Below, piece by piece: positions 316 through 15,974 of a stretch of 16,733 bases of DNA. The translations under genes were made by a program, and so were the position numbers. Source of the stretch: a virus (taxonomy: Duplodnaviria > Heunggongvirae > Uroviricota > Caudoviricetes); IMG/VR virus record IMGVR_UViG_2974603165_000001, positions 130,589-147,321 of that record, one strand, 5' to 3'. Within the stretch, counting starts at the first letter, position 1. Each line of letters starts with the position of its first letter. The notes under the pieces were generated by a model that saw only the letters and a list, made by a program, of their open reading frames with translations, did no database searches and was not told where the DNA came from.

Positions 316-1290
316 TTACCTTATCCTGACACCACCATGCTTCTCGTAGATGGCAATGATCTTCTCCAGGTCGAGAACCGAGACGGTTTCAGTATGACCA
401 TCCTTGATCTCTCTCGAAGTCAACACCCTGCACTGCAAGGTTCTTTTGCACTCTCTTTCTGCCCTTCTGCAAGAAGTGGTCTCGGGGTAAGACCACACAC
501 CCAACACACTCATCTGGAAAAGATTCTTCGAGTTCTGCTGTTGGAGTCTGTTACTGGAGTGGGTAGCAATACCAAACTTCAACGCTACAGCCAGGCCTTC
601 ATCCATGATAAGGTTAATGTACGACTGCCTCTGCGACTGGCTCCCGCACACAGGGCAACCGCACCGTTTCTTCAATTGAGCAGGGTGGAAGTCCCAATCC
701 CCATGCTCCGGGCACCTGAAAACAACACGGGTCTTTTCGTGACCCAACCACTCTCCTGTATCAAAGCCAACAAACTCACAACCCAAAAGTTTGGCCTTTT
801 CCGCTGACCTTTTTTCCGCTTCTGGGGCATGGGCCGTCATAAGGGATTGGCCTGCACTCTTTGATTTACACATCTTGCACCTCTGCCCGAACATAAAATT
901 ACTGAGCCGGGGGCTGAGAACCTTTCCACAAGAACACTTGTATGTGACAATCACATTGTGCTGTTTGAATGGCTCTCGTATTTTTTCGAGAGAGATAAAG
1001 TCCAACCCTTCCTCTAAGAGCGTCTTCTTCACTTTGAAGAGGTACTGCTCAAAATTGAAACGGTACGTATATTTGCATCTGCATGATCTGTCTCCTTTTA
1101 GGAGTTCTCCAACGCGAGATATGAAGTCCTCCCCTCCCACCCCCGCCAAGGCGTATTCATCCTTCTCACAGATGGGGCATTCATACCTCCACATATTCTT
1201 CTTTTCAAGCCTAAAGAATTTCGTCCCTTCTGGAAATTTCCCTGTTGCCATAAAGCGGGACACGTACACCTCATCATCTATTCTTCTCAC
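316..1290 (-). CDS. Putative freestanding homing endonuclease with zinc-ribbon repeats and a GIY-YIG/T5orf172-like C-terminus
   Basis: 324 aa with several Cys clusters (CPIC, CRC, CSC…CKMC, CPEH…CGCPVC). C-terminal YINL…KFGI…RL…ERECKR resembles GIY-YIG-like nuclease domains. Confidence 0.65.
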   Translation of the reverse strand: MRRIDDEVYVSRFMATGKFPEGTKFFRLEKKNMWRYECPICEKDEYALAGVGGEDFISRVGELLKGDRSCRCKYTYRFNFEQYLFKVKKTLLEEGLDFISLEKIREPFKQHNVIVTYKCSCGKVLSPRLSNFMFGQRCKMCKSKSAGQSLMTAHAPEAEKRSAEKAKLLGCEFVGFDTGEWLGHEKTRVVFRCPEHGDWDFHPAQLKKRCGCPVCGSQSQRQSYINLIMDEGLAVALKFGIATHSSNRLQQQNSKNLFQMSVLGVWSYPETTSCRRAERECKRTLQCRVLTSREIKDGHTETVSVLDLEKIIAIYEKHGGVRIR

Positions 1291-1780: not shown

Positions 1781-3100
1781 ACCCCTCGGAAAAAGTCAAG
1801 GATCTTTTCAAAATATCTTAGCGGTCGGCCTGTCGAGACCCTTGCGAGTTCGAGACCTTTTTGATTTCGTTGCGAAACTATAACGGCAAATGATTACACA
1901 AATGATTGTTGCATAGTGTGATGATTAGCCAGCTATGAGCACGATTAGACCTTGACTTGAGATGTGTTGTGTGCATACCGCATTTAACATAATACACCTT
2001 ATACGCACTACACTACACACCGGGCAACCACTAACCATAGTGATGATTACATAGAGTGACTATCCACTGCATACACCATCAACACACTAACTATTCATCA
2101 GTGCAACAGTAAGCAGCGCTATAGTAACGCATAGTGACCATTACTGTCGGCTGTGGTGCAGATGAGAGTGATTATCATTACAGAATTGAAACCATTTGCG
2201 TTTTGATTCGCATTCTCAAAAAAGAAATATTCGACAAATGAAAATATTTTTCTTGACATAGGGAAAGAGTCGTGTTTAGCACATCATAACCTTGTGGGCC
2301 TGGCCTTCTGCGATAAGACCATGATTTACATCACATTAAGCCCTTACAGGGCTTGACACTTTAGGGATAATCTGCCCACGAAAAAGCCCTGATTATGACC
2401 GAAAACGGACGTTTTCAGGATGGATAGATAGACCTTTGTCAACCATTAATCACGATTTAACGTGATTTAATTTACATATTGACAAGCCTTTGACGTTATG
2501 ACACGCCACCTATAAAAGCAAGTAGCGATCACGAAAGTGATCGGCGTTATCGTGGCGTGATCATGATGATATCATTGCTACGTAGTAGCATAAACAGATA
2601 AGAAAAATTTATTGATTTATCACGTAAGTGATGATAAAGAGGCGTCACCGTAGCCACGATAACGCGAACGAAATCGAAACTTTGTTTTGATTGAGTTACT
2701 ACTTGCTTTTATAGGTGGCTCGCTACGCTCGCCACCTTCACCCCGATAACGCGAACAAGGGCGATCATTCTGCATTGTCATGATCATAGATCACGACGAA
2801 AAGCAACAGAAAAGAGACGAAAGGCGGGTTTTAGGTTGTGTTTTTAGTTTTATTCACTTTGTTGCATAATCATTCATCCTGAATGCGACACATTATCATC
2901 TTGCCCACAAAACCGGGTTTTTAGTGATTTTACGTGTTTTTCAGTTTGTCAATAGGTCTGAATTGAGCCTGTAAGCCTCTCTGAGCGTCTCGCCTGTTAA
3001 CGTGTACCCTACATCGTTTCCTTTGAGATCTCTTCATAGCGCGTTTTATTCAATTGGCTGCATAAAGAAAAGTTAACTATTGATTGACAGGCACAAAAAA
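1781..3100. other. 1.3 kb non-coding tract rich in inverted and short direct repeats
   Basis: No ORF in the six-frame track between 1780 and 3141; many palindromes read directly. Confidence 0.75.
2505..2719 (+). ncRNA. Candidate structured RNA or ssDNA fold (multi-branched)
   Basis: Perfect 21 bp IR (2505-2525/2699-2719) enclosing a 13 bp IR (2544-2556/2653-2665) and hairpins with GAAA (2526-2543) and GTAA (2619-2632) tetraloops. Confidence 0.45.
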
Positions 3101-3494: not shown

Positions 3495-3737
3495 TTACAG
3501 CGTAAAATCTGGCCCTAACGCATCATTAAGCAGTGCCACCAGGGAACGATCATCCCAGTAAACGGGCTGGACTTCATAAAAACCGACTTCCAAGATCTGC
3601 ACCTTCATGACCTCATATTCAGCCGGGGTAATCTCAATACAGCCGCAAGCATGGCGGGCAATGTGTACGCCCTGCACACGTTCGAATGACACAGAAACCA
3701 CTTTAAAGCCTGCTTTCAAGATTTTGCGAGTTTGCAT
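3495..3737 (-). CDS. Hypothetical protein, 80 aa
   Basis: AAGGA RBS; sits behind a promoter/leader-hairpin cassette. Confidence 0.8.
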   Translation of the reverse strand: MQTRKILKAGFKVVSVSFERVQGVHIARHACGCIEITPAEYEVMKVQILEVGFYEVQPVYWDDRSLVALLNDALGPDFTL

Positions 3738-3757: not shown

Positions 3758-3816
3758 GCCGGGAACCGTTTCCCGTCCTGATGCAGATATATTAACAGAT
3801 CCTTTAATTGGTGCAA
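3758..3816 (-). promoter_or_regulatory. Promoter + 5' leader hairpin cassette
   Basis: TTGCAC-16-TAATAT, then ATCAG-GACGGGAAACGGTTCCCGGCC. Confidence 0.65.
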
Positions 3817-3849: not shown

Positions 3850-3935
3850 AAAGATTCGGTATTGAGAATCACTCGCATTACCAGAATGACAGGCTCCTCC
3901 GGTGGCTTTCCTCCGGTATCCATCGTTGCCGCTTC
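3850..3935 (-). ncRNA. Candidate small RNA unit A (alternatively a 27 aa ORF at 3840-3923)
   Basis: Follows the promoter at 3942-3970 with no long ORF; aligns by eye with 11797-11873 on the plus strand. Confidence 0.4.
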
Positions 3936-3941
3936 CAAAAC

Positions 3942-3970
3942 AGCATAACAAAAGCGAGACCTGATATCAA
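3942..3970 (-). promoter_or_regulatory. Sigma70-like promoter
   Basis: TTGATA-17-TATGCT; the -35 lies in the loop of a terminator-like hairpin (3954-3977). Confidence 0.65.
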
Positions 3971-3988
3971 GCCCCGCTCATGATTATT

Positions 3989-4198
3989 TTACTTCACAAT
4001 CTTATCATAATGATCGTAAAGCTCTTGTGCTCTGAGACAAGGCCAGGCGGTATCCTCAAAATGTACCCGGTGATCGATTGGCCTTGCATCTTTCAGGCCG
4101 TGAATGTGGAAAAATGATTCATGATCAATCTGTACAGCTTCCAGGATCAAAACGTTGTGTTGATCAATCTCTTTCTTTCTGATGGTGATAGTTGTCAT
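3989..4198 (-). CDS. Hypothetical protein, 69 aa
   Basis: GAGG RBS; directly follows the upstream gene. Confidence 0.8.
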   Translation of the reverse strand: MTTITIRKKEIDQHNVLILEAVQIDHESFFHIHGLKDARPIDHRVHFEDTAWPCLRAQELYDHYDKIVK

Positions 4199-4208
4199 GA
4201 TTTCAGCC

Positions 4209-4583
4209 TCAATAAAAGTCGATGTTTTCAGGGTTTAAGAATTCAAAGTTACGGCTGATCGGTGCGCCAGTCTCACCGCTTCCCCACTGGTTAAGGTTGT
4301 ATTCTGCTGTACGGCGGATCGCTAACCCTTTTTCAATCTTGCTTTCCGCTTCCTGCTGTTTACCGTCTAAGAAGGCATGAAAACGATCACGGGTTGCGCC
4401 GCTTTCAAGTTCCCAGGCTTGCAACTCTTCACGCTCTGACATAACGAACATAAGATCACGAAAACCCTGTTTCGCCATATCCTGGCCCGTGCCAAACATT
4501 GAATGATGATAATCAAAGGTGACGTGAAAAGGCTTGACTTTCGGCAATTTTGCATCTTTCGGTAACGGTTTGGCTGTGATCAT
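4209..4583 (-). CDS. Hypothetical protein, 124 aa (start MITAKP)
   Basis: GAGGGG RBS before ATG 4583. The longer ORF start at 4706 lies inside the -35 of its promoter. Confidence 0.75.
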   Translation of the reverse strand: MITAKPLPKDAKLPKVKPFHVTFDYHHSMFGTGQDMAKQGFRDLMFVMSEREELQAWELESGATRDRFHAFLDGKQQEAESKIEKGLAIRRTAEYNLNQWGSGETGAPISRNFEFLNPENIDFY

Positions 4584-4676
4584 GATTGACCCCTCAAAAG
4601 TTTTAACTGCTATAGCAGGTAAAAACGTTTTACCTGTTATAACGTGTAAGCAGAAACGATAACGCCCTACGCAATA

Positions 4677-4706
4677 AAGATAGCATAGAGCGGTTTTAGA
4701 TTGCAA
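4677..4706 (-). promoter_or_regulatory. Sigma70-like promoter (extended -10)
   Basis: TTGCAA-18-TATCTT with TGn; shares TTGCAATCTAAAA with the promoter at 6074-6101. Confidence 0.6.
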
Positions 4707-4712
4707 GTGTTT

Positions 4713-5219
4713 TTAATGATTATCGACAATCGAATAATAGTAATCAGATCCGCACTCTGTGATCACCTTGTCCACAAGTTCACACATTTTGCGCAAAACG
4801 TAAACGCAATGGCTTTCGAACTCTGAGACAATATTGATGATTTCCAGTGTTGTCGATCCTTGTGGTATGATCAAACAATCCAACACGCCATAATGATCGA
4901 ACCAGGCAACGCATTTAGAGCACTGGAAAGGCTCCTCTTTGCTGTCATGGCAATGTAACCCGGCAGCGTGAAAGGCTCTTAGATTGGCGCATAGCTCGTT
5001 ATACGCTGTTTCCTCTGATTCTGCCCAGAATTCAATCCACTGCTGATCGAACAAGTGATCAAGCTCCTGATCATCGGGTGCGCCCTCCTCGAAAGGTGGC
5101 GCGTTTTCGTCCCAGACAGCTAATTGAAACAGTTTTAAGCCTTCACGCTGGGTTAATGTGTAACGCTCTGATGCAACGCCACGTTTTGAGATATCAACTA
5201 ACCGGATTTTGTGGATCAT
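4713..5219 (-). CDS. Hypothetical protein, 168 aa
   Basis: Fills the space between a hairpin repeat and the next promoter; AAGG RBS. Confidence 0.8.
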   Translation of the reverse strand: MIHKIRLVDISKRGVASERYTLTQREGLKLFQLAVWDENAPPFEEGAPDDQELDHLFDQQWIEFWAESEETAYNELCANLRAFHAAGLHCHDSKEEPFQCSKCVAWFDHYGVLDCLIIPQGSTTLEIINIVSEFESHCVYVLRKMCELVDKVITECGSDYYYSIVDNH

Positions 5220-5242
5220 GTTACCGCCTTATAAAAGAGTAT

Positions 5243-5261
5243 GCCGGGAACGTGTCCCGGC
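5243..5261. repeat. Intercistronic hairpin repeat
   Basis: GCCGGGAACGTGTCCCGGC, identical to 3101-3119 but without a U-tract. Confidence 0.85.
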
Positions 5262-5270
5262 GTTTTGTGG

Positions 5271-5639
5271 TTATTCAATGTAAAGCAATTCTGCATCAAT
5301 GTAAACATTTTTGCTTGCAAATGACTGTGAAAGCGATGTTAATTTATCGCCTCTTTCGCCTAAACCACGATCCCAGAATCCAGCGCCGTGACCGTTGCGA
5401 GTAAGCCAAAAATCATGCCCCGCGTTAGAAAAATCATAGCCCGATGGCAAGTTATCCAGCAGATCCCCGGCAGCGTCGATAAATTGGGCGCAATCGTAAG
5501 CGCTATTGATTTTCGCAGACTCTGAGAGATCAAAACTTTCCAGGCTTTCGAATTCTTCCCCGTTGTCATCAGTGGCGCTACTGCTCCACACCAGGCAAGT
5601 TAGGTAAGCATTAAGGAACGTTTCAAAGTTGGATTTCAT
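5271..5639 (-). CDS. Phage protein with AGHDFWLTRNGHGAGFWDR motif, 122 aa (start MKSNF)
   Basis: GAGG RBS before ATG 5639. I recall the motif as recurrent in phage early regions; function unknown to me. Confidence 0.8.
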   Translation of the reverse strand: MKSNFETFLNAYLTCLVWSSSATDDNGEEFESLESFDLSESAKINSAYDCAQFIDAAGDLLDNLPSGYDFSNAGHDFWLTRNGHGAGFWDRGLGERGDKLTSLSQSFASKNVYIDAELLYIE

Positions 5640-5683
5640 CGGGTTAACCTCGTTTTGTTGTGTGGCATTAGTGCCTGAAAGAG

Positions 5684-5712
5684 ATACTATCAAAAGCGCC
5701 TACAGCTTGCAA
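5684..5712 (-). promoter_or_regulatory. Sigma70-like promoter
   Basis: TTGCAA-17-TAGTAT; -35 in the loop of hairpin 5692-5720; near-copy of the 3446-3471 region. Confidence 0.75.
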
Positions 5713-5730
5713 GCGCCTTTACTAACACTC

Positions 5731-6024
5731 TTACATTTTGTCCGCTTTCAGCATATCGGAAACGTAATCTAACAGCTTGTTGAATTTCTGCTTTTCGTCG
5801 ATCCAGACTGGCAGATCTTCCAGCTTGCTAAACAGGTTTGAATAATAGCTTAATGTTTCATCATCATTCAGACGGTACATTACTAACGGTTCACACTCGT
5901 TTTCTAAATCCCAGACCCAGACCTGGCGCATATCGTCTGCATCGTGCAAGGTAACATCAAGCCCCCGGCGTTGTGCAAAACCTTTTACAACTTCTTTTAG
6001 TGAACCGTCTTTATTAATGATCAT
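5731..6024 (-). CDS. Hypothetical protein, 97 aa
   Basis: Behind a promoter/leader cassette; AAGGG RBS. Confidence 0.8.
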   Translation of the reverse strand: MIINKDGSLKEVVKGFAQRRGLDVTLHDADDMRQVWVWDLENECEPLVMYRLNDDETLSYYSNLFSKLEDLPVWIDEKQKFNKLLDYVSDMLKADKM

Positions 6025-6045
6025 GGTGTAACCCTTTCAAGTGGT

Positions 6046-6101
6046 GGCGGTAGGATTACCGCCGATGTGAGACATTCTATCAGAGTGATTTTAGATTGCA
6101 A
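6046..6101 (-). promoter_or_regulatory. Promoter + leader hairpin cassette
   Basis: TTGCAA-16-TAGAAT, then CACATC-GGCGGTA-ATCC-TACCGCC. Confidence 0.75.
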
Positions 6102-6354
6102 TAACTTTCGCACCAGTTAAAGAGCGGTAAAAGTGGAAATGCTGCATTGCTTTATGTTCTGTGAAGCGATAGACGCCAGAAGCAAAACCGCCGACTTTGC
6201 TTGCTTCCATTACCAGGTAAGAATCACCGCCTTTGTGCTCAACAGTGATGATCCTAAATTCGCTTTCAGCTTTTGCGATAATGCCACGGGCTGGCGCTGG
6301 TGGGGTGATTACAGCGGGTTTTTTGCAGAAAAGAGACTTTAAGAATTTAAACAT
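6091..6354 (-). CDS. Hypothetical protein, 87 aa
   Basis: GGAGG RBS; own cassette upstream. Confidence 0.8.
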   Translation of the reverse strand: MFKFLKSLFCKKPAVITPPAPARGIIAKAESEFRIITVEHKGGDSYLVMEASKVGGFASGVYRFTEHKAMQHFHFYRSLTGAKVIAI

Positions 6355-6373
6355 GTTTGTAACCTCCAGAAAA

Positions 6374-6430
6374 GGCGGCGCTATTGCCGCCCGATGTGGT
6401 TACTTTACGCCTTTAGGTTTTCGCCGTCAA
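6374..6430 (-). promoter_or_regulatory. Promoter + leader hairpin cassette
   Basis: TTGACG-17-TAAAGT, then AACCACATC-G-GGCGGC-AATAGC-GCCGCC-TTTT. Confidence 0.75.
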
Positions 6431-6740
6431 TAGGAAAAACATCATTAACGATAGAAATTAGAGCGCCGATCACTTGATCCTGGGTTAAGGCGCTGCTTTC
6501 GCCTTCTTGGATCTGCTTTCCGTTGCAATCCAGTGCATAAGAAATAAAGCTATCACGATAAACCGCGTTAACAGTCTGTTTAACCTCAGTGCGGATCACT
6601 ACTTCCAGGCGGCAAGTTTTGAACTTGTCCGCTTGATCGGTAAAAGTCAACAGCATTTTATCATCAAAAGAGCGGAATTCAACTTCAACACGATCCGCAA
6701 CATTACCAGACAGGAAAAAGAAATTTTTTGCATTAGCCAT
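6405..6740 (-). CDS. Hypothetical protein, 111 aa (start MANAKN)
   Basis: AAGGG RBS before ATG 6740; this start avoids overlap with the upstream small gene. Confidence 0.75.
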   Translation of the reverse strand: MANAKNFFFLSGNVADRVEVEFRSFDDKMLLTFTDQADKFKTCRLEVVIRTEVKQTVNAVYRDSFISYALDCNGKQIQEGESSALTQDQVIGALISIVNDVFPIDGENLKA

Positions 6741-6750
6741 GATATGACCC

Positions 6751-6873
6751 TTATTTAAATAAAGCGGCAAGCGCCAGGAATGAGAAGAAAACCAGGAGGA
6801 TCAAAGACATACGATCCGCCTCTTTGTATGCTTCATTTTCGGTAGAATACTCAACTACATAAGGCTTTTTCAT
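6751..6873 (-). CDS. Small membrane protein, 40 aa (MKKPYVVE…LILLVFFSFLALAALFK)
   Basis: GGAGG RBS before ATG 6873; hydrophobic C-terminus. The longer ORF would run through the promoter cassette. Confidence 0.7.
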   Translation of the reverse strand: MKKPYVVEYSTENEAYKEADRMSLILLVFFSFLALAALFK

Positions 6874-6896
6874 CTTGTGACCCTCCAGGTTAGCAA

Positions 6897-6954
6897 CCGG
6901 GAACCATTTCCCGGCTGATGTGGTATTATTGATCGGTTTGGGTTGCCGTGTCAA
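6897..6954 (-). promoter_or_regulatory. Promoter + leader hairpin cassette
   Basis: TTGACA-18-AATAAT, then CCACATCAGCCGGGAAATGGTTCCCGG (27 bp identical to 9053-9079). Confidence 0.8.
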
Positions 6955-7292
6955 TCATTAGTTTGTGGGATTTTGTCGATACTCTCAAAAAAGTTATCGT
7001 CCGCATCCTGCACGTTTTGCAGGTATACCGCCCCGGCGTTATCCGGTGCGCCAACATCCGAACCAGGCAAAACACGATAGCAACCAGCAAAAGTAAACTT
7101 GTTAGGATCTTTCGGATCATTGGTAACATCATCAGGATAGAGGCGATCCAACATTGCCACACAATCGGCCTGATCTTTTGCATAGCTGGCGCTGGTGGAT
7201 GTCCAGTATTGCTCATAAGATGATTTACAATCATCAGCGTTGTTAGGCTGTACGGTGCAAAGGAAAGAAGCCAGTACGATAGATGCGATCAT
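6951..7292 (-). CDS. Putative exported protein with 4 Cys, 113 aa (start MIASIVLASFLC)
   Basis: Hydrophobic N-terminus and four cysteines; start is 5 nt after the stop of the 33 aa gene. Confidence 0.7.
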   Translation of the reverse strand: MIASIVLASFLCTVQPNNADDCKSSYEQYWTSTSASYAKDQADCVAMLDRLYPDDVTNDPKDPNKFTFAGCYRVLPGSDVGAPDNAGAVYLQNVQDADDNFFESIDKIPQTND

Positions 7293-7296
7293 GATA

Positions 7297-7398
7297 TCAA
7301 CCCCACAAAACAGCAGCAGTAACAACAAGACCAATGATCGCCAGTACGATAGCAACCGACCCGATTAACAACCATTTCGCAATTTTGTACTCATTCAT
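7297..7398 (-). CDS. Small single-pass membrane peptide, 33 aa (MNEYKIAKWLLIGSVAIVLAIIGLVVTAAVLWG)
   Basis: Hand-translated and not in the ORF track; GAGG RBS; first gene behind the promoter at 7458-7487. Confidence 0.75.
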   Translation of the reverse strand: MNEYKIAKWLLIGSVAIVLAIIGLVVTAAVLWG

Positions 7399-7457
7399 GA
7401 TTTAGAACCTCTAACAGTGGTGGCATGATTGCCGCGTTTCTCTTAATCAGTGCGCCC

Positions 7458-7487
7458 ATTGTAAGGGCTGCACTTGTTAAGAGTCAA
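7458..7487 (-). promoter_or_regulatory. Sigma70-like promoter embedded in a 44 bp imperfect palindrome
   Basis: TTGACT-18-TACAAT; IR 7440-7483 is centred on the -10. Confidence 0.75.
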
Positions 7488-7500
7488 CAACTTTCGAAAA

Positions 7501-7719
7501 TTATTTTTGAATCACGATAGCTGGCGTTTTGTCGCCTTCTTTAAGGCCGGGTTTTAGTTCATCGCAGTTGCCTAACTGCTCACCCTTGCGGAGTTCATAC
7601 GATTGATCGTAAACCTCGCAAGCCTCCATTGTTTCGAATTGCTTACGGACTAACCAGGAACAATCCAATTTAATGGACGTAAAAGAAATGTGACACGCTA
7701 ACACTAAGTAACCGATCAT
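7501..7719 (-). CDS. Putative exported protein with 4 Cys, 72 aa
   Basis: GAGGA RBS; MIGYLVLAC N-terminus; Cys spacing similar to the 6951-7292 product. Confidence 0.75.
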   Translation of the reverse strand: MIGYLVLACHISFTSIKLDCSWLVRKQFETMEACEVYDQSYELRKGEQLGNCDELKPGLKEGDKTPAIVIQK

Positions 7720-7763
7720 GCTTTTATCCTCTGATATGGGGCGTTGGTTGCCCTGTGTGAGTC

Positions 7764-7791
7764 ATACTATCAGATCCGTTTGTGGTGTCAA
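7764..7791 (-). promoter_or_regulatory. Sigma70-like promoter
   Basis: TTGACA-16-TAGTAT, GATC in the spacer, short GGGC/GCCC leader hairpin. Confidence 0.7.
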
Positions 7792-7803
7792 TACCCATAA
7801 AAG

Positions 7804-7832
7804 AAAAAACCGGGTTTTTTAGTTCCCGGTTT
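7804..7832 (-). terminator. Intrinsic terminator (CCGGG/CCCGG hairpin family)
   Basis: AAACCGGG…CCCGGTTT followed by TTT on the minus strand. Confidence 0.7.
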
Positions 7833-7865
7833 CTAACGTCCTGTAATCAATTTTAAGCCCTTTTA

Positions 7866-8093
7866 CTACTCTAAGTAGGCTGATGCCGCCTGGTGATGCA
7901 AAACGCGCTTACGTTCTGTTAGGCGCTTTAAATTGGCGGGATCATAGTTGCCCCCGTTCCAATCATCAGTAAAGCGGATCGGTTTGTGGCGTTTGTTGTT
8001 GCGCTGGCGGCGCTCGTTAACTTCACCATGCTGTAAGCGGGTGCGGGTACGGTTTGCACTCATTTTCTGGGTTGTTGCGTTTGTGTATGTCAT
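7866..8093 (-). CDS. Basic hypothetical protein, 75 aa (start MTYTN)
   Basis: GAGG RBS before ATG 8093; Arg/Lys-rich. Confidence 0.7.
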   Translation of the reverse strand: MTYTNATTQKMSANRTRTRLQHGEVNERRQRNNKRHKPIRFTDDWNGGNYDPANLKRLTERKRVLHHQAASAYLE

Positions 8094-8121
8094 GGCGTTA
8101 GCCCTCATAGTTGGTTGTTTA

Positions 8122-8454
8122 TCAGTTGTTGTAAGTCTGTCCGCGCCAGTCTGCGATCTCATCGGCGCGGGTATTAATATAAGCCTGCACAAAATCGCGT
8201 GTCCCTTGGATATGAATATCCACTTTACCGCCCCGGCTCTTTACTTCCATTGCTAACCCGGTGCCCTCTAAATCATTTAAAGGCCCGGATCGGCGGGTGT
8301 GATACTTGTTCCCGCGATAGCTATACTCTATATAATGAAACATCGTCTTAATCCTGTACATATGCCAGGCGCTTTGCGTCAGGCGGTAAACCCTTGCGGG
8401 GATCTTGAAAGCGATCACACCGCAAGCAATAAAGATGATCCCCGTTGCCGTCAC
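8122..8454 (-). CDS. Hypothetical protein, up to 110 aa
   Basis: GTG start just after the upstream stop; the true start could instead be the internal MFHYIEY. Confidence 0.65.
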   Translation of the reverse strand: MTATGIIFIACGVIAFKIPARVYRLTQSAWHMYRIKTMFHYIEYSYRGNKYHTRRSGPLNDLEGTGLAMEVKSRGGKVDIHIQGTRDFVQAYINTRADEIADWRGQTYNN

Positions 8455-8456
8455 TA

Positions 8457-9029
8457 TTAGTAATCCTCTAACAGTTCGTTTAATTTCTCACGTTCATCAG
8501 CAGTAAAGAAGCTGTTAAACTCGTTGCCGATCTTCTGGCAAGCCAGATAAAGATCTAAACCTTTGCGGCTATCCTCATCATAATCTAAGTTAGCGCAAAA
8601 ATCAGCATGGGTCTCATTACCTAATGACGCATCAGAAATCAGGCTATACAGTACACCAGCAGCGCCCGGAGTGATAGCGAAAACTTTTGCCCAGCCGCCA
8701 GCGTTCAACTTATTAGACAGTTTACGATCATCGTTTGTCCAATCTTCCTGGCCCAGATTAACAGCCATCAGGCCCAGCTTTTTCATTTCGCGGACATCTT
8801 GAGGAGTCAAGCCATTTTTACGCACAATACGATGACCAGTGCCAGTGGTGTAATCAGTGGTGATCCGTGCGCCGTTGTTGCTACGGCTTAAAACGATGTG
8901 GAATTGGTCGCCCTTCCAGTCTTTATCTTTACGCATACCAACGCTTACAGCTTTAAAATTAACGTTGATTGATTTCAGGAATTCAGCTACAGCCAGATCG
9001 GTTTCGTTTACAGTGATTGCGTTGTTCAT
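8457..9029 (-). CDS. Hypothetical protein, 190 aa
   Basis: Long ORF behind a full cassette; AAAGG RBS. Confidence 0.85.
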   Translation of the reverse strand: MNNAITVNETDLAVAEFLKSINVNFKAVSVGMRKDKDWKGDQFHIVLSRSNNGARITTDYTTGTGHRIVRKNGLTPQDVREMKKLGLMAVNLGQEDWTNDDRKLSNKLNAGGWAKVFAITPGAAGVLYSLISDASLGNETHADFCANLDYDEDSRKGLDLYLACQKIGNEFNSFFTADEREKLNELLEDY

Positions 9030-9052
9030 TTTTGTGACCTTTTCAGTTTTAA

Positions 9053-9110
9053 CCGGGAACCATTTCCCGGCTGATGTGGTTATTATGGGTTAATGCGTTT
9101 ACTGCGTCAA
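9053..9110 (-). promoter_or_regulatory. Promoter + leader hairpin cassette
   Basis: TTGACG-17-CATAAT, then CCACATCAGCCGGGAAATGGTTCCCGG. Confidence 0.85.
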
Positions 9111-9118
9111 GCGATTTT

Positions 9119-9547
9119 TTAGCCTTTCAGGTAATTATTTTTTACCTGGTAAACGTGGCGATAACGTACATAACCGTTATTAATACCACGATAAACAGAT
9201 TTTGTTTCGTCTGTCATTGAAACGTAAGCCAGATCGTAACCGATTTTTTCCAGCCAGTAAAGCGCGGCGCTTTGGCCTTCATTGTGGGATTGTTCCCGGC
9301 GATAAGGCGAGGTTAAAACCTCAATAGATCCAACGTCAGAATATTTATTCTGGACAGTTGGCAGATCGTCACAATGCAGGCTTGCCCGGTATTTGTTGAT
9401 CGTGTTGCCGTTGACATCGCGGCCAAAATCGAAAGCCTCTACCACAACAAAAAATTCTTTGCCCAGTGTACGGCCTTTGGCCTTTGCGCTGGTTTCCAGT
9501 TGGCGGACTGCATCAGCCAGGTTGATAGATGTTTTAAACTTTGCCAT
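9119..9547 (-). CDS. Hypothetical protein, 142 aa
   Basis: Behind a cassette; AAAGG RBS. Confidence 0.85.
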   Translation of the reverse strand: MAKFKTSINLADAVRQLETSAKAKGRTLGKEFFVVVEAFDFGRDVNGNTINKYRASLHCDDLPTVQNKYSDVGSIEVLTSPYRREQSHNEGQSAALYWLEKIGYDLAYVSMTDETKSVYRGINNGYVRYRHVYQVKNNYLKG

Positions 9548-9568
9548 GATGTTAACCTTTAATGTTAT

Positions 9569-9624
9569 GCCGGGAACCGCCCCGGCTTGATAAATAATGT
9601 AATCGATCTAAAACTTGATTGCAA
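9569..9624 (-). promoter_or_regulatory. Promoter + leader hairpin cassette
   Basis: TTGCAA-17-TACATT, then ATCAAGCCGGGGCGGTTCCCGGC. Confidence 0.7.
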
Positions 9625-9632
9625 CAACTATT

Positions 9633-9971
9633 TTAAACGATTTCTAATTTTCTGATGCGCCATGAATGCACTGTGATTTTAGACAGCATAGTGTTAGCCT
9701 CTTCATAAGTCAACGGGCTGGCATTCATGATCACTTTTTCTTTTGTTTTCTTGTTGATCACAACAACGTTAAACATCAAAGCGATGTAATCAGGGTTTAA
9801 AGTGCGGCGCTCAATGATCCGGGCGCTAACGCCGTTATCCAGGTAATCTTTTTTCGTTGCCCGTGCATCCTTCCAGGACAATTCCGCGCAAGAATCTTCC
9901 CAGCCGCTGCAAGTCATTTCTTGCACGATGATTTCATTTACCCATTTGTTAACGCGTTTTGCCTTTACCAT
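9633..9971 (-). CDS. Hypothetical protein, 112 aa
   Basis: GAGG RBS; own promoter. Confidence 0.8.
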   Translation of the reverse strand: MVKAKRVNKWVNEIIVQEMTCSGWEDSCAELSWKDARATKKDYLDNGVSARIIERRTLNPDYIALMFNVVVINKKTKEKVIMNASPLTYEEANTMLSKITVHSWRIRKLEIV

Positions 9972-10006
9972 GATAAACCTCTAAATTGTTGTGTTTTGTT
10001 GTGGGG

Positions 10007-10036
10007 ATTATGCGCCAGTTGCCTGGCGCTTGTCAA
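10007..10036 (-). promoter_or_regulatory. Sigma70-like promoter with a palindrome filling the spacer
   Basis: TTGACA-18-CATAAT; GCGCCAG-GCAA-CTGGCGC at 10012-10029. Confidence 0.8.
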
Positions 10037-10282
10037 TCAATAAACGGTAATTTTTTCGCCTTTCACAATCACATAAGTGTGACCGGAATTAGAATAGATA
10101 TCAACATAAACGCGGCGCATACGTCCGGCAAGGTTGATCATTTTTGTTGTGGGGATCTTAGTGCCGTACCCGGTGCGGGTTTTCTGTAAGCCCCGGCGCT
10201 GCCAATCCAACGGGCGATAATGCAGCGCCACGAAATCAGACGCGTAATCAGGATGTGAGATCATTACCATTTCTTGAGACAT
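10037..10282 (-). CDS. Hypothetical protein, 81 aa
   Basis: AAGGGG RBS; own promoter. Confidence 0.8.
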   Translation of the reverse strand: MSQEMVMISHPDYASDFVALHYRPLDWQRRGLQKTRTGYGTKIPTTKMINLAGRMRRVYVDIYSNSGHTYVIVKGEKITVY

Positions 10283-10306
10283 TTTAAACCCCTTGTGTTT
10301 TGTTTC

Positions 10307-10358
10307 GCCAGTTGTTTGGCTTGATAAAGATTCTACCTAAGAGCCTGCACCGTTGCAA
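10307..10358 (-). promoter_or_regulatory. Promoter + short leader hairpin
   Basis: TTGCAA-17-TAGAAT, then ATCAA-GCCA-AACAAC-TGGC; -35 in the loop of hairpin 10337-10366. Confidence 0.75.
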
Positions 10359-10385
10359 GCCCTTAGAGAAAATAAATCTCAACTT

Positions 10386-10775
10386 TTACGCCGCCACAAG
10401 GTCACGCGACTTGCACCAGGTTACCGGAATTTTATTTCCCTGATGACCGATTACCATTGTTTGACGCTTGCGGCGTCCTGGAAAACGCTTTCCATTTGGG
10501 TGACGCACTGACAGCGGGGCGCGGTCAATTTTAAGCGCTGGCGCTGGCAGTGGTGCGGCTGGAACGGTTGAAACCTCAACTTTAAGCGCGTTGTTTTTCT
10601 GCCAGTCCGCATGGGCGTTGGCTGTTTCATTAAAAGCAGCCTGCACACAATCGGGAACCTCAATAGCCCAGCGTTTACCCGGTGCGGCATCTTTGCCGTT
10701 GTCAATAGTTTTAACGCCTGCTGCTTTTGCTGCTTCACGGGCCAGGGTACGATTAGCGAAGAATTGAATATTCAT
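10386..10775 (-). CDS. Hypothetical early protein, 129 aa (start MNIQFFANRTLAREAA)
   Basis: Start lies just downstream of the leader hairpin; Ala/Pro-rich linker and basic C-terminus. Confidence 0.8.
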   Translation of the reverse strand: MNIQFFANRTLAREAAKAAGVKTIDNGKDAAPGKRWAIEVPDCVQAAFNETANAHADWQKNNALKVEVSTVPAAPLPAPALKIDRAPLSVRHPNGKRFPGRRKRQTMVIGHQGNKIPVTWCKSRDLVAA

Positions 10776-10796
10776 AATAATCTCTCTCTGAGTTAA

Positions 10797-10856
10797 CCGG
10801 GGAACCATTCCCCGGCTGATGTGGCTATTATTGATCGAAAGGTTTTAGCGAGTCAA
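10797..10856 (-). promoter_or_regulatory. Promoter + leader hairpin cassette
   Basis: TTGACT-18-AATAAT, then CCACATCAGCCGGGGAATGGTTCCCCGG, which has a compensatory G-C pair relative to the other copies. Confidence 0.8.
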
Positions 10857-10868
10857 CAACTTTTAAAG

Positions 10869-11402
10869 TTATTTTGCAAGATTCTTTAAAGCGTCCATCT
10901 TTCCTACGATTTCAGCGGCGGCGGCTTTCGCTAATGTGATCGCCTCCTCTAAGATTCCGTGCTCTTCATAGATGCTCTGAGCGGATTCTAACACTGTTTC
11001 ATCATCATGATAGGAATGATCCCAGCCACACCCGATCACGACATCATCTAAGAGATCAACGCCGTCGATACTTGCGGAGACTGTCAAGCCGTAATCAGTC
11101 GCATCGAGATCACGATCAAAGGCGTTTAACGCATCTTGATAAGCCTGGGCGCTTGCCTCATTAGGGGACATACCGCCTTTAATCAGGTTTTCCAGGCGCT
11201 CGGCAAGGCTGTAATTTAACGGTATGCCGTATTTGTAAGAGTTGCGATCCGCGTTGCGGTTTTTGACAGTGACGCCGCCCTGATGCTTATCAGTCAATTC
11301 CCACTGATCGCCTAAGCCGTCGTTTGTCTCATAGTTAACCACTGAGAAAACAAAGTTAATGCCTTGTGCTTCTACGTTGAAAGTTTCGCTTACGTGTGAC
11401 AT
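10869..11402 (-). CDS. Acidic hypothetical protein, 177 aa (start MSHVSE)
   Basis: GAGG RBS before ATG 11402; the longer ORF runs through the promoter. Confidence 0.8.
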   Translation of the reverse strand: MSHVSETFNVEAQGINFVFSVVNYETNDGLGDQWELTDKHQGGVTVKNRNADRNSYKYGIPLNYSLAERLENLIKGGMSPNEASAQAYQDALNAFDRDLDATDYGLTVSASIDGVDLLDDVVIGCGWDHSYHDDETVLESAQSIYEEHGILEEAITLAKAAAAEIVGKMDALKNLAK

Positions 11403-11427
11403 ATAATTAAACCTCAGTTTTGATTGT

Positions 11428-11486
11428 GGTCGGCGGTGTGCCGTCCTGATGTGATACATAGTAGGGATTAAAGATCCTGGCGTCAA
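11428..11486 (-). promoter_or_regulatory. Promoter + leader hairpin cassette (first of the island)
   Basis: TTGACG-17-TACTAT, then CACATCA-GGACGGC-ACACC-GCCGACC; A/T-rich UP-like tract upstream. Confidence 0.8.
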
Positions 11487-11610
11487 TACCTGAAAGCAAA
11501 ATAATTTAAAAATCTTTTTGGTAAAAAATGATTGCATTCACCTGGTGACCTATGCTATTCACGCGCACACATTAAGTAAAGGAGGGATGAAAAAGAATTG
11601 TTGAAAGTGG

Positions 11611-11640
11611 TTGACGGTGCGGAGCAAACCAGGCTACAAT
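11611..11640 (+). promoter_or_regulatory. Divergent sigma70-like promoter with no downstream ORF
   Basis: TTGACG-18-TACAAT. Confidence 0.65.
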
Positions 11641-11762
11641 ATCCCTACAGTAACAAAACGCCTACCAACGGCGCTAAACTTGGCTGGCATACCCGGAGGG
11701 GATGCAAGGTGGATCGCCGGTAGTTCGCCTCAAATAAGTTTTGTAAAGATTGAAAATAGTTG

Positions 11763-11791
11763 TTGACCTGAAAAGCAGGATCGGCGATACT
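11763..11791 (+). promoter_or_regulatory. Second divergent sigma70-like promoter with no downstream ORF
   Basis: AGTTG-TTGACC-17-GATACT; same AGTTG pre-35 motif as the promoters at 7487, 9624 and 10856; GATC in the spacer. Confidence 0.6.
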
Positions 11792-11796
11792 TATCA

Positions 11797-11875
11797 CATG
11801 GCGCAGGGTAACGGATAGCGCGAGACAAACACCGAGCCTGCCCGTCATTCCGTAAATGAGAATGATTCTCATTCA
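11797..11875 (+). ncRNA. Candidate small RNA unit B
   Basis: Follows the promoter at 11763-11791; similar to 3861-3935 (minus). Confidence 0.4.
11855..11873. promoter_or_regulatory. Fur-box-like perfect 9-1-9 palindrome
   Basis: AATGAGAAT-G-ATTCTCATT; two mismatches to the 7-1-7 consensus TGATAATnATTATCA. Confidence 0.55.
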
Positions 11876-11929
11876 ACCTAAAAATTTAGGTGGACGTGTG
11901 AAAATTTTTGTGTCATAATTACATACCCC

Positions 11930-12141
11930 AAAAAATTTTTTTCGCAATAGATCCGAAAATTCCATTTTTGAAAACGGCAAACCCCTCAAGTCCCCGCCGC
12001 GAAAAAATTTTTTCGAGCGAGTTCTGGAAAATCCATTTTCGATTTTGAAAAACCTCTCAAGTACCTGCTGTACCGAGAAAAATTTTTTACTATAGAGTTT
12101 GAAAATCCATTTTGGAAAATGAAAATCCTTTCGAGTCCCTG
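11930..12141. repeat. Three degenerate ~72-76 bp tandem units
   Basis: Units start at 11930, 12002 and 12078. Each has A5-6T6-7 … GAAAAT(T)CCATTTT … CC.(C/T)TC(A/G)AGT.CC. Confidence 0.7.
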
Positions 12142-12407
12142 AATCCCTGGAGAGTTTTGAGATAAGTTACTGGCACATATGGACATAATAGCGACCAAGG
12201 TTGGTTGTTTTATACTGTATAATCATGGACTTATGAGGGGTCTTTTGAGATGTTGATTCCCAGCCATTTGAGATAGCAGCCCCAACGTTATGGGGGCGTG
12301 AGCCACTACACCAGGTAAAACCATTTTGAAAACCATTTCGATTTCCATTTTGAATCTGAGGCCCAAATATCCACAAAATATCTGGGGTCAAATATCTGAA
12401 ACCATTT

Positions 12408-13244
12408 TCATTTCAGTTTGGATTTCAAAAGGTTATGCCACGCCAAAATATCCCATACCTTGTCTGTTGACATGGTGTACACTGCAAGCTCTGCCCTGGT
12501 AGGGTTGGTGTAGTCATCGAAGATGCTCATCAAATCCTGGATTTTGTGAGTCGTCACATGGACTGTACCTTCGGCTGACTCCTTGATCAGGATTGTCCCG
12601 TTAGTGGATACAGAGATAGCGAATCCACCGACAAACATATCAAGATCTGAACCACCGTCGAAGATCAACCAACCATCTACACTCATTGTGAGATCGCTTG
12701 GTGATGTGGATAAGCCAGAATCTACCGTCATAAAAGGGTTGTAGTCTACACCTAACAATGTTCGCAGGTATCCGCGTGAGGTATCTGACCATCCAAACTG
12801 CAACAAGACATCATGCAGCCGCTGAGATGACGTGGTGAAAATGTCGTCACACTCAGACCTGGCTTGAAGCAGTATTTCCTTGATCTTATCAATGGATGGT
12901 GGTGATTGCCCATCAAACTCATCCAAGGCTTGGTCTATTGACCTGGTAACCGACAAGGCAGCATAAGTCATGTCTGCGACCATATTATCTTTCAGTTCAT
13001 TCTGGGCGGTGAAGTCTTTCAGTTCGTTTGGAACATCAGATAAGAGATCGCTTACAAGACTCTTAGCAGAATCAAGTCTGCTTTCAGTTGTAGAGTCATC
13101 TGTGTCTACCCTGTCCAATTCCCACATGATATCCTTCACTTTGTCCTTCATAAACCCTTCCATGTCAGGGAGGTCGTGAAGGGTCTCACGGTGCCTATAA
13201 TCCCAGTGTGGGCTTCTTACTCCGTGCAAGTCATAATTCTGCAT
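12408..13244 (-). CDS. Acidic hypothetical protein, 278 aa
   Basis: Long ORF, AGGAG RBS, Asp/Ser-rich; no family recognised. Confidence 0.8.
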   Translation of the reverse strand: MQNYDLHGVRSPHWDYRHRETLHDLPDMEGFMKDKVKDIMWELDRVDTDDSTTESRLDSAKSLVSDLLSDVPNELKDFTAQNELKDNMVADMTYAALSVTRSIDQALDEFDGQSPPSIDKIKEILLQARSECDDIFTTSSQRLHDVLLQFGWSDTSRGYLRTLLGVDYNPFMTVDSGLSTSPSDLTMSVDGWLIFDGGSDLDMFVGGFAISVSTNGTILIKESAEGTVHVTTHKIQDLMSIFDDYTNPTRAELAVYTMSTDKVWDILAWHNLLKSKLK

Positions 13245-15022: not shown

Positions 15023-15348
15023 TGCTTCATTTCCTCCGCTATGCCGTCCCACTTGAGACATTTGTGGTCAACCCAGAGTTCGATCTCTTTCTTAACCGCT
15101 GATAAGTTGATCAGCTTCTCACTGATACCGAGGTCTGCCAATCTTTTAACCTCAAGCATGTAAGCCAGATCCACAACGCAGTTCAGAACATCAGCAATCT
15201 CACCGATAGCTGGTTCGTCACAACGCCAAGGGCGGTTCAATGCTCGTGACAGTTCACCTACTTCCTCCACCAGATTCTTAAAGACAGAATCGACAGACCG
15301 GGCTTGCGCCCGGACTGAGGAGGAGAGGATGCGATCAATCGCTTCCAT
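15019..15348 (-). CDS. MazG-like NTP pyrophosphohydrolase, 109 aa
   Basis: LVEEVGELS…IGEIADV matches the EExxE…ExxD MazG signature. Confidence 0.75.
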   Translation of the reverse strand: MEAIDRILSSSVRAQARSVDSVFKNLVEEVGELSRALNRPWRCDEPAIGEIADVLNCVVDLAYMLEVKRLADLGISEKLINLSAVKKEIELWVDHKCLKWDGIAEEMKQ

Positions 15349-15974
15349 TATTTCTCCTGTTTAGTTTCTGTTTTGGCCTTGGCTGCTTCATCAGCATCCA
15401 GTTCACTGCTGTACTTCTTGATGGCTTTGTTCAGGAAGTCAATCGCATTGCCAGCGGTCTCACGAACTTCCGGGGTTTCCACCACCGTCTGACCTACGTA
15501 TGCTGCCAGCATTTTGTATGCGGTGTCCTTAGACGGCATGAAGTTAGCGTAAGCGATGCCCATCAGGAAGATGAACGCAAAGCCAGCAACGATACGACGC
15601 AAAGGTTTCAGCAGGTCACGGAACGGAGGAGCCTGGTCATCCGGTAAAGCTACCTGGTGAATATTCCCCGCAGCAAGCCAGTTTGAGGTGTGACCGTTAG
15701 GATAACGGATTTTCACAGTCTCGTCACTACGATCCACATTGGTGATTACGATCTTCTCACCAGCAGTCAGGTCGTCGAAGTCTTTAGCCAGGGTGACCAC
15801 TTTACCGACATGCAGGTTGATGGTCTTTTTGTCCGCTTCTTCTGCTTCCATCATCCGAGCGATCCACAGACCGACATAGACGATGGTGGTGAAGAAGAGC
15901 AGGAAGCCGAAGCCGCCGTATTTTCCGTCAGTTGACAGAACGTCGATTGCGTATACTAAGAAGGCCCATGACAT
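15348..15974 (-). CDS. Putative membrane protein, 208 aa
   Basis: Hydrophobic stretches near both ends flanking a soluble beta-rich insert. Confidence 0.8.
   Translation of the reverse strand: MSWAFLVYAIDVLSTDGKYGGFGFLLFFTTIVYVGLWIARMMEAEEADKKTINLHVGKVVTLAKDFDDLTAGEKIVITNVDRSDETVKIRYPNGHTSNWLAAGNIHQVALPDDQAPPFRDLLKPLRRIVAGFAFIFLMGIAYANFMPSKDTAYKMLAAYVGQTVVETPEVRETAGNAIDFLNKAIKKYSSELDADEAAKAKTETKQEK

Follow-up and report, generated by a model that had tools for sequence, protein, structure and literature searches.

Fur operators of Gammaproteobacteria, of which the one at the aerobactin iucA promoter is an example, are described by a 19-bp consensus, GATAATGATAATCATTATC, or by a 7-1-7 reading of the same DNA. 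Paired cis-acting sites behind phage early promoters are exemplified by nutL/nutR in lambda and putL/putR in HK022. A third system of interest here is the untranslated region of the T5 terminal repeat ('Repeat Region 3'), where the injection-stop region contains many unexplained palindromes and DnaA boxes, Fur being unmentioned (10.1101/866236). The locus that is compared below with these systems lies in the final 16.7 kb (16,733 nt, referred to as the window) of the 147,321-bp virus record IMGVR_UViG_2974603165_000001, which represents a lytic Erwinia-type phage whose nearest sequenced relative is Erwinia phage Hena1 (Vequintavirinae, Henunavirus). The window holds two related non-coding units, A on the minus strand and B on the plus strand, each composed of a predicted promoter (P1), a leader and a palindrome with the sequence of a Fur operator (Table 1). 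On balance, we favour the view that each unit is a cis-regulatory module, consisting of a sigma-70 early promoter P1, a non-coding leader of ~55 nt and a host Fur operator at ~+57 to +76, in which host Fur-Fe would gate read-through from P1. Judging from these sequence features, part of the early transcription of the phage is probably tied to the iron state of its host.

Units A and B are true paralogues. They were noticed in an original prediction made by eye, and the sequences and distances quoted in it are all present in the window. In unit A, the -10 hexamer TATGCT is at 3947-3942, GAGCCTG starts 46 nt from it and the palindrome ends 81 nt from it, at 3861, while in unit B the -10 hexamer GATACT is at 11786-11791 and the corresponding distances are 43 and 82 nt, the palindrome ending at 11873. 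Local alignment of the two units gave a score of 47, against a mean of 16.8 (standard deviation 2.8, maximum 29) for dinucleotide shuffles, 0 out of 1000 of which reached 47. The final 32 nt alone align (26/32) in a pairwise BLAST of both window copies; once homologues from six phages are added, the homology between A and B spans ~115 nt, from the -35 to the palindrome, and is nearly gapless. A covariance model of the unit, which is sequence-only and yields rough E-values because it was quickly calibrated, locates two full copies, and no more, in the 147-kb genome (E-values of 2.6e-26 and 1.2e-24), two each in Hena1 and Klebsiella phage BIS47, and one each in phiTE and tuntematon, the latter also harbouring a weak A-like remnant. 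In the window genome, Hena1 and BIS47, the copies are 7-8 kb apart and face away from each other. The idea that the units mark both ends of an early island survives in part: the units do point away from a block of early genes 7-8 kb long, a layout kept in Hena1 and BIS47, but early genes go on beyond unit B. The sole geometry common to A and B is the distance from P1 to the box. The distance from the box to the next promoter (P2) is 17 nt in B, where the box centre falls at ~-62 of P2, 44 nt in A and ~125 nt in the A units of Klebsiella phages; it is constant among B-type units (16-18 nt to the -35, also in Hena1, PVP-SE1 and KNP2) and variable among A-type ones.

Promoter, leader length and box are kept across two phage subfamilies. 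Unit B was matched in 222 phage records, from Vequintavirinae, Stephanstirmvirinae (phi92, phAPEC8) and the unclassified Shewanella phage 1/4, with ~80% identity across 80-100 nt, and these matches are mostly intergenic and almost always devoid of annotation. Unit A was matched in ~37 records, in 35/37 of which the 113-nt unit is the sole match; its flanking kilobase aligns in Hena1 and in no other A-type record. A 26-sequence alignment contains almost no indels, and its most conserved columns are the -35 (GCTTG), the -10 (TAT..T), AGCG near the start, CACC, TGCC, ATTC and the palindrome. Boxes in tandem follow unit B in some relatives, two in Klebsiella phages and four in phiTE, tuntematon and phi92, with an exact spacing of 29 bp that recurs in three distant phages (tuntematon 18063/18092/18121/18150; phiTE 39511/39540/39569; locus L163 3029/3058). 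In Shewanella phage 1/4, the promoter is followed by a leader of ~95 nt and a box region whose 23 nt are identical, with a weaker box at a distance of 29 bp.

By its sequence and by its use in bacteria, the box belongs to the Fur-operator kind, as its description as a Fur-box-like palindrome had suggested. Box B matches the classical consensus at 14/19 positions and the palindromic form AATGATAATnATTATCATT at 16/18 specified positions, shows no mismatch to the degenerate consensus AATGAKAATNATTMTCATT and is in its sequence indistinguishable from bacterial Fur operators. The exact 19-mer (pattern AATGAGAATnATTCTCATT, scanned in ~185,000 bacterial species with one genome per species) occurs at 120 or more loci in bacteria of many phyla, and 98 of the 121 matches listed were intergenic, that is outside any open reading frame (ORF) of at least 150 aa. 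Twenty adjacent downstream genes, selected by size as the largest ORFs starting at most 250 nt downstream of the box, encode five TonB-dependent receptors, two FeoB, one FTR1 iron permease, four Fe3+-type periplasmic binding proteins, two extracytoplasmic function (ECF) sigma factors, one PepSY_TM protein, one multicopper oxidase, one Fe-only hydrogenase, one DUF2325 protein and two proteins without family match. At least 14 of these 20 are concerned with iron uptake or iron regulation, and the enrichment of iron genes beside the box-B sequence in bacteria is plain despite the size-based choice. In the phage genome, sites with at most three mismatches to AATGAKAATNATTMTCATT occur only at 2161-2179, 3861-3879 and 11855-11873, i.e. 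three against 0.1 expected from block shuffles; shuffled genomes contain 0-2 such sites per 150 kb. The count rises to eight in tuntematon (0.5 expected) and nine in phiTE (0.2 expected), clustered at the same three kinds of non-coding locus.

The phage boxes resemble bacterial Fur operators in having the same 19-bp inverted repeat, in that box B is the very sequence preceding genes for TonB receptors, feoB, FTR1, fbpA-type proteins and ECF sigma factors, and in that relatives carry several adjacent boxes, as do many Fur-regulated promoters. They differ in residing on a virulent phage, between two promoters and ~57-76 nt past the first, without overlapping any promoter core, and in having a GC-rich flank. 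The arrays differ as well, since phage boxes are 29 bp apart, whereas the usual neighbour of bacterial sites with the same core is an overlapping box in a 6-bp register, a spacing of 29 bp being rare. It could therefore be asked whether the palindrome merely resembles a Fur box and is bound by another protein, either a phage regulator or a different host factor, a scenario that we regard as decidedly improbable. Its appeal is that two symmetric positions, T/A in the classical consensus, are nearly always G/C in the phage copies, and that the GC-rich flank absent from bacterial Fur sites accompanies the box in three phage groups. Nevertheless, iron-uptake genes across bacteria make use of exactly this sequence. 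Furthermore, the variants found in relatives follow the degeneracy of Fur half-sites (T/G, A/C), and some of them, for instance AATGATAATCATTCTCATT in tuntematon as well as phiTE, are near-perfect classical Fur boxes. As for a candidate ligand, many relatives have a small gene with a helix-turn-helix (HTH) look just upstream of unit B, but this gene is absent from the window genome and from the Hena1, Klebsiella Mydovirus and PVP-SE1 loci, all of which bear the box, and it was consequently rejected as the binder. A phage-encoded Fur was rejected too, as no FUR-family gene was found in the phage genome. The HTH-like gene itself, of ~88 aa, is on the plus strand and directly upstream of unit B in phi92, tuntematon, Kashira, Av-05 and phiTE, and its product has an HTH-looking ALGWQGGTVHQVA.ATGL motif.

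The conservation of the leader between P1 and the box, in sequence as well as in length, lends itself to another explanation, also raised in the original prediction, in which the units are the genes of a small-RNA or leader-RNA family. The P1 transcript, of at least ~80 nt and folded into a 5' stem-loop and a palindrome hairpin, would then be the product itself, acting as a regulator of host or phage mRNAs or as a stabilising or antitermination leader, and the likeness to a Fur box would serve to regulate the RNA or be secondary. This is unlikely. Rfam returned no match at E<=1 and, although promoters are present, no intrinsic terminator (stem plus U-run) that could form the 3' end of a small RNA was found within 60 nt after either unit. 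Most single-sequence folds do give a long-range stem and a palindrome hairpin, but in ten such folds z ranged from +0.67 (unit A) to -1.78, i.e. no better than shuffles, and the RNAalifold consensus (-2.56 kcal/mol) has a near-zero covariation term (-0.07). None of the helices tested on the 26 sequences, many of which are closely related and whose alignment was not fitted to any structure, exceeded column shuffles. The helix that would close the 5' region, by pairing the first bases of the transcript with those before ATTC (AU[A/G]GCG with CG[C/U][U/C]AU), pairs in 87% of cells and shows some GC/AU/GU exchanges, yet it is not above column shuffles (45-67/500). The hairpin TCATTC-N9-GARTGA, said originally to be kept in both units, does pair in 91% of cells among 26 homologues, but no more than column shuffles do (120-320/500), almost all of its columns being invariant; since shuffled columns pair as often, this pairing is no evidence for an RNA hairpin. 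A middle helix, AGGGG/CCCCU, was dismissed, as it is confined to the phi92 group and pairs in 35% of cells overall, and the A and B types would require different inner helices. The palindrome does not behave as an RNA stem either because box variants lack compensation, the column pair 108/116 being mismatched in 14/25 sequences. A homologous element in T5-like phages (see below) resembles a discrete transcription unit of ~140 nt, which would fit an RNA product; in a 347-kb IMG/VR contig (L141), however, the promoter is so close that the proposed 5' arm would go untranscribed.

A coding function and other RNA origins were considered as well. The ORFs had been described correctly (27 codons in A, 3923-3840; six codons in B, from 11798), but the 27-codon ORF is unconserved, the A unit of Hena1 having no ATG, and micro-ORFs on either strand were rejected because start codons are not kept, the antisense ATG (from GTCAT) being lost where the unit reads GCTAT. 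ARAGORN detected no tRNA in the window. One Klebsiella phage record has a tRNA-Phe over its A homologue, which is taken to be a displaced annotation because ARAGORN finds no tRNA there, and a tRNA origin of unit A was accordingly discarded. In Klebsiella phage record OY978796.1 (2465-5577, locus L005), the tRNA features coincide with no ARAGORN tRNA, and the tRNA annotation of that record seems shifted relative to the sequence. The units were also compared with nut and put sites, which they resemble as two paralogous non-coding elements that lie shortly past their own early promoters and point in opposite directions. In contrast to those sites, they possess neither covarying boxB- or put-type hairpins nor a boxA motif, and their best-conserved part would be a DNA operator for a host repressor. 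Mimicry of the ToxI antitoxin was rejected, the pseudo-ToxI locus of phiTE being at 106.7 kb, outside this region (PMC3475682).

The alternative offered by the original prediction, a promoter-plus-operator module, is the one that held up: both promoters are conserved, P1(B) has the look of a standard early promoter and the palindrome has the sequence of a Fur operator. In the mechanism that we favour, Fur-Fe2+ would occupy the box (or the arrays of up to four boxes in relatives) downstream of P1 in an iron-replete cell and act as a roadblock to elongation from P1. In an iron-poor cell, apo-Fur would leave and P1 transcripts would add to those of P2, which would make P1 an iron-starvation-responsive booster upstream of a second promoter. 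Read-through would reach the last two small genes of the block from unit A, and non-coding A/T-tract and iteron-like repeats from unit B. With such a module, a phage possessing a di-iron subunit of ribonucleotide reductase (RNR) would tune its early or origin-proximal transcription to host iron; the small subunit of a class I RNR, a di-iron protein, is encoded at positions 109777-110595 of the genome. Fur binding, the roadblock and the iron response at the units are what we infer from the DNA.

Several observations weigh against this mechanism. The box overlaps no -35 or -10 of any promoter found, an atypical position for an operator, and inspection by eye and a promoter scan revealed no promoter-like hexamer pair across it on either strand. 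In E. coli, Fur clusters located between promoter and gene reportedly repress weakly (PMC2189734). Box A is a poor match, with three mismatches and an imperfect palindrome, and the 20 bacterial genes that link the box to iron are not a random choice. The regulated promoter could be P2 rather than P1 because the B box is at ~-62 of P2, at a conserved distance. Finally, a simple roadblock leaves unexplained why the leader is conserved in sequence and length, and why its GC-rich element is common with T5-like phages.

This last point relates to an element that extends beyond the relatives of the window phage. The exact box was found in at least 119 IMG/VR contigs, and the matches listed include six T5-like genomes of 108-120 kb. 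In these, a -10 (TAATAAT) and CAC are followed by a strong GC hairpin (GGGGCGC/GUGCCCC), AATTCTCA, the box, ~20 nt and a long hairpin with a T5 run, an arrangement that is possibly, on the basis of these motifs, a transcription unit of ~140 nt with a Fur operator beside the injection-stop region. The unit model aligns the T5-like elements to its positions ~59-116 (E-values of 4e-6 to 9e-4), and it also aligns L141 (2e-9). A DUF932 gene of this jumbo-phage contig has, ~340 nt upstream (1190-1360), CACACC...TGCCTGCTATTC, the box and a second half-box, directly preceded by a terminator and an extended -10 promoter. The GC-rich element is phage-specific because bacterial Fur sites with the same core have AT-rich flanks only, without ATTC-N4 or a GC-rich element, and the leader was on the same grounds rejected as part of a generic extended Fur site. 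Units A and B are akin to the T5 terminal-repeat region, in that the exact box follows a GC hairpin in T5-like genomes and in that both are conserved non-coding DNA of the earliest-expressed region with unconserved neighbouring genes. However, the T5-like element is inside a 10-kb terminal repeat, with a terminator-like hairpin after it and DnaA boxes nearby, whereas the window phage has two copies ~8 kb apart, a longer leader and no DnaA cluster. It is conceivable, though rather doubtful, that the ~58-nt 3' half of the unit (CACC..TGCC..ATTC plus the Fur box) is a cis-element common to several unrelated groups of large virulent enterobacterial phages (rV5-like, phi92-like, T5-like and jumbo). 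On this view, it would bring host Fur-Fe to the non-coding DNA that is expressed first, in a role other than the classical occlusion of a promoter. The element could make early transcription, origin transcription or DNA entry dependent on iron, or it could titrate Fur during replication, thereby opening the host iron regulon for the di-iron RNR.

A related but distinct possibility, with little likelihood in our view, is that the boxes recruit host Fur for a purpose unconnected with P1, either as a sink that derepresses host iron uptake during replication, or as part of a nucleoprotein structure that would form at the origin-like repeats or close to the chromosome end, comparable to the crowding of host-factor sites in the T5 injection-stop region. 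The tandem arrays of relatives, with their exact 29-bp spacing, overlap no promoter, and the boxes are present in three non-coding loci, namely near the chromosome end, in unit A and in the repeat hub of unit B. The same box in the terminal repeat of T5-like phages, beside the untranslated injection-stop region, and the di-iron RNR subunit encoded by the phage would also agree with such a role. On the other hand, the sink would be small, as there are only three boxes in the window phage and one of these is weak, and the fixed link between box, P1 and leader in both paralogues points to a role coupled to transcription. Clusters of DnaA boxes of the T5 type were looked for and rejected, as the window holds three scattered DnaA boxes, none of them in the non-coding hubs, which speaks against this possibility.

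The surroundings of the two units are listed in Table 1, in which promoter calls are consensus matches and transcription starts are predicted. The phage's own early cassettes consist of a promoter, CACATC, a 5' stem-loop and a ribosome-binding site (RBS). P1(B) matches the other early promoters of the phage in having a TTGAC-type -35 with an upstream TG (agtTGTTGAC), a -10 and a CACAT start, and its leader may begin with a stem, the stem-loop being weakly supported. Unlike these cassettes, unit B has no RBS and no gene, and has a Fur box where they have the coding start; its stem, if real, has a loop of ~40 nt instead of one of tetraloop size. The start region of P1(A), GTTTTGGAAGCG, is unlike the CACAT start of the cassettes; the order of hairpin, T-run and -10 around it is kept in the A-type units of BIS47, KNP2, 4MG, tuntematon and L141. 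Downstream of P2(A) comes the cassette of the gene at 3737-3495, with its standard CATC, 5' hairpin and RBS. A sequence echoing the core of unit A, CGGAGGAGCCTGGTCATCCGGTAA, occurs at 15624-15648 on the plus strand, within a minus-strand ORF (15348-15974); it has a 12-mer identical to 3901-3890, then GTCAT and GGTAA, and chance is an unlikely source of this match in 16.7 kb.

To the left of unit B, the gene contained in the long minus-strand ORF 10869-11537 probably starts at 11402 and not at the start of that ORF. Inside the ORF, an ATG at 11402 is preceded by a standard early promoter (11486-11458) with CACATC, hairpin and RBS, and residue 46 of the long form is the first one covered by the PHROG match. 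The gene-free hub measures ~1 kb because the left-hand gene starts at this position. The non-coding segment 11706-11760 between P0 and P1(B), located at the position that the small HTH-like gene occupies in relatives, is conserved in phiTE and PVP-SE1-like phages. The repeat region past P2(B) contains no convincing ORF and converges on the next minus-strand gene; the repeats look origin-like or resemble a bent-DNA array, and phiTE has GATCGAGACCC iterons at the equivalent place (L019 2690-2860). The third box of the genome sits in a 1.2-kb ORF-free stretch (1821-3084), which also includes a weaker Fur-type box with four mismatches at 2882-2900. At the equivalent locus, clusters of boxes are seen in tuntematon (4633, 4812, 5624) and phiTE (49703-50021). 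This ORF-free end region is bordered by a gene (316-1290, minus strand) for a 324-aa protein with an N-terminal CapR-homology domain and matches to HNH-type endonucleases (phrog_681, phrog_559).

Table 1. Features of units A and B, of their surroundings and of related loci (window coordinates unless a locus handle beginning with L is given)
Feature	Position	Strand	Description	Basis
Unit A	~3975-3861	minus	promoter, leader, Fur-type box	
Terminator-like hairpin	3952..3979	minus	hairpin and T-run of upstream gene (3989-4198); overlaps -35 of P1(A)	terminator scan
P1(A)	3942..3970	minus	-35 TTGATA, 17-nt spacer, extended -10 TGtTATGCT	promoter scan
Unit A leader	3881..3935	minus	AGCG, two ACCGGAGG repeats, CACC, GCCTG, TCATTC	sequence, alignment
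Unit A Fur-type box	3861..3879		AATGCGAGTGATTCTCAAT; weaker copy, 3 mismatches to AATGAKAATNATTMTCATT	consensus match
P2(A)	3789..3816	minus	TTGCAC, 16-nt spacer, TGtTAATAT	sequence; shares its cassette form with the window's other early promoters
First gene downstream of unit A	3495..3737	minus	80 aa, no family match	
Second gene downstream of unit A	3404-3141	minus	87 aa, phrog_17242, function unassigned	
Terminator	3121-3099		after the 87-aa gene	
Third Fur-type box	2161..2179		TAATGATAATCACTCTCATC on minus strand, 2 mismatches; keeps ATTC-N-AATG flank, without full unit upstream	
P0	11611..11640	plus	TTGACG, 18-nt spacer, TACAAT; ~150 nt upstream of unit B	promoter scan
Unit B	~11763-11873	plus	promoter, leader, Fur box	
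P1(B)	11763..11791	plus	TTGACC, 17-nt spacer, GATACT	promoter scan, alignment
Unit B leader	11797..11854	plus	GC-rich 3' half CACC-N6-TGCC-N-G-NN-ATTC	folds, alignment
Unit B possible closing helix	11798-11803 with 11843-11848	plus	AUGGCG with CGUCAU	single-sequence folds
Unit B Fur box	11855..11873		AATGAGAATGATTCTCATT, perfect 9-1-9 palindrome	0 mismatches to degenerate Fur consensus AATGAKAATNATTMTCATT
P2(B)	11891..11919	plus	TGGACG, 17-nt spacer, TGtCATAAT	promoter scan
Tandem repeats	11926..12141	plus	three of ~72 nt, A6T6-7 tracts, GAAAATCCATTTT; P1(B) and P2(B) read into them	
Iteron-like copies	12318-12426		AAACCATTT	
Small HTH-like gene in relatives	L162 2541-2807, L020 2041-2307, L185 131-397, L186 79-342, L019 1849-2280	plus		
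T5-like element	L229 1600-1800		vB_EcoS_HdH2, ~9.15 kb, inside terminal repeat; also L190, L227, L243, L251, L252	

The original prediction did not recognise the units as described, and a literature search indeed turned up no description of them, nor any paper linking Fur to rV5-like, phi92-like or T5-like phages. The placement of the operator is new in three ways: the operator is carried by virulent phages, it follows an early promoter and it is linked to a phage-specific GC element. Operators for host sensors on strictly lytic phages have been little studied. If Fur binds, more than 200 sequenced phages of the therapeutic type, infecting E. coli, Klebsiella, Salmonella, Cronobacter, Erwinia and Pectobacterium, would sense the iron of their hosts, and their performance in use could vary with iron because iron differs sharply between laboratory broth and infected or plant tissue. 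Conserved but unannotated 'junk' hubs would likewise gain a function, and the long-unexplained palindromes of the T5 injection-stop region a candidate ligand.

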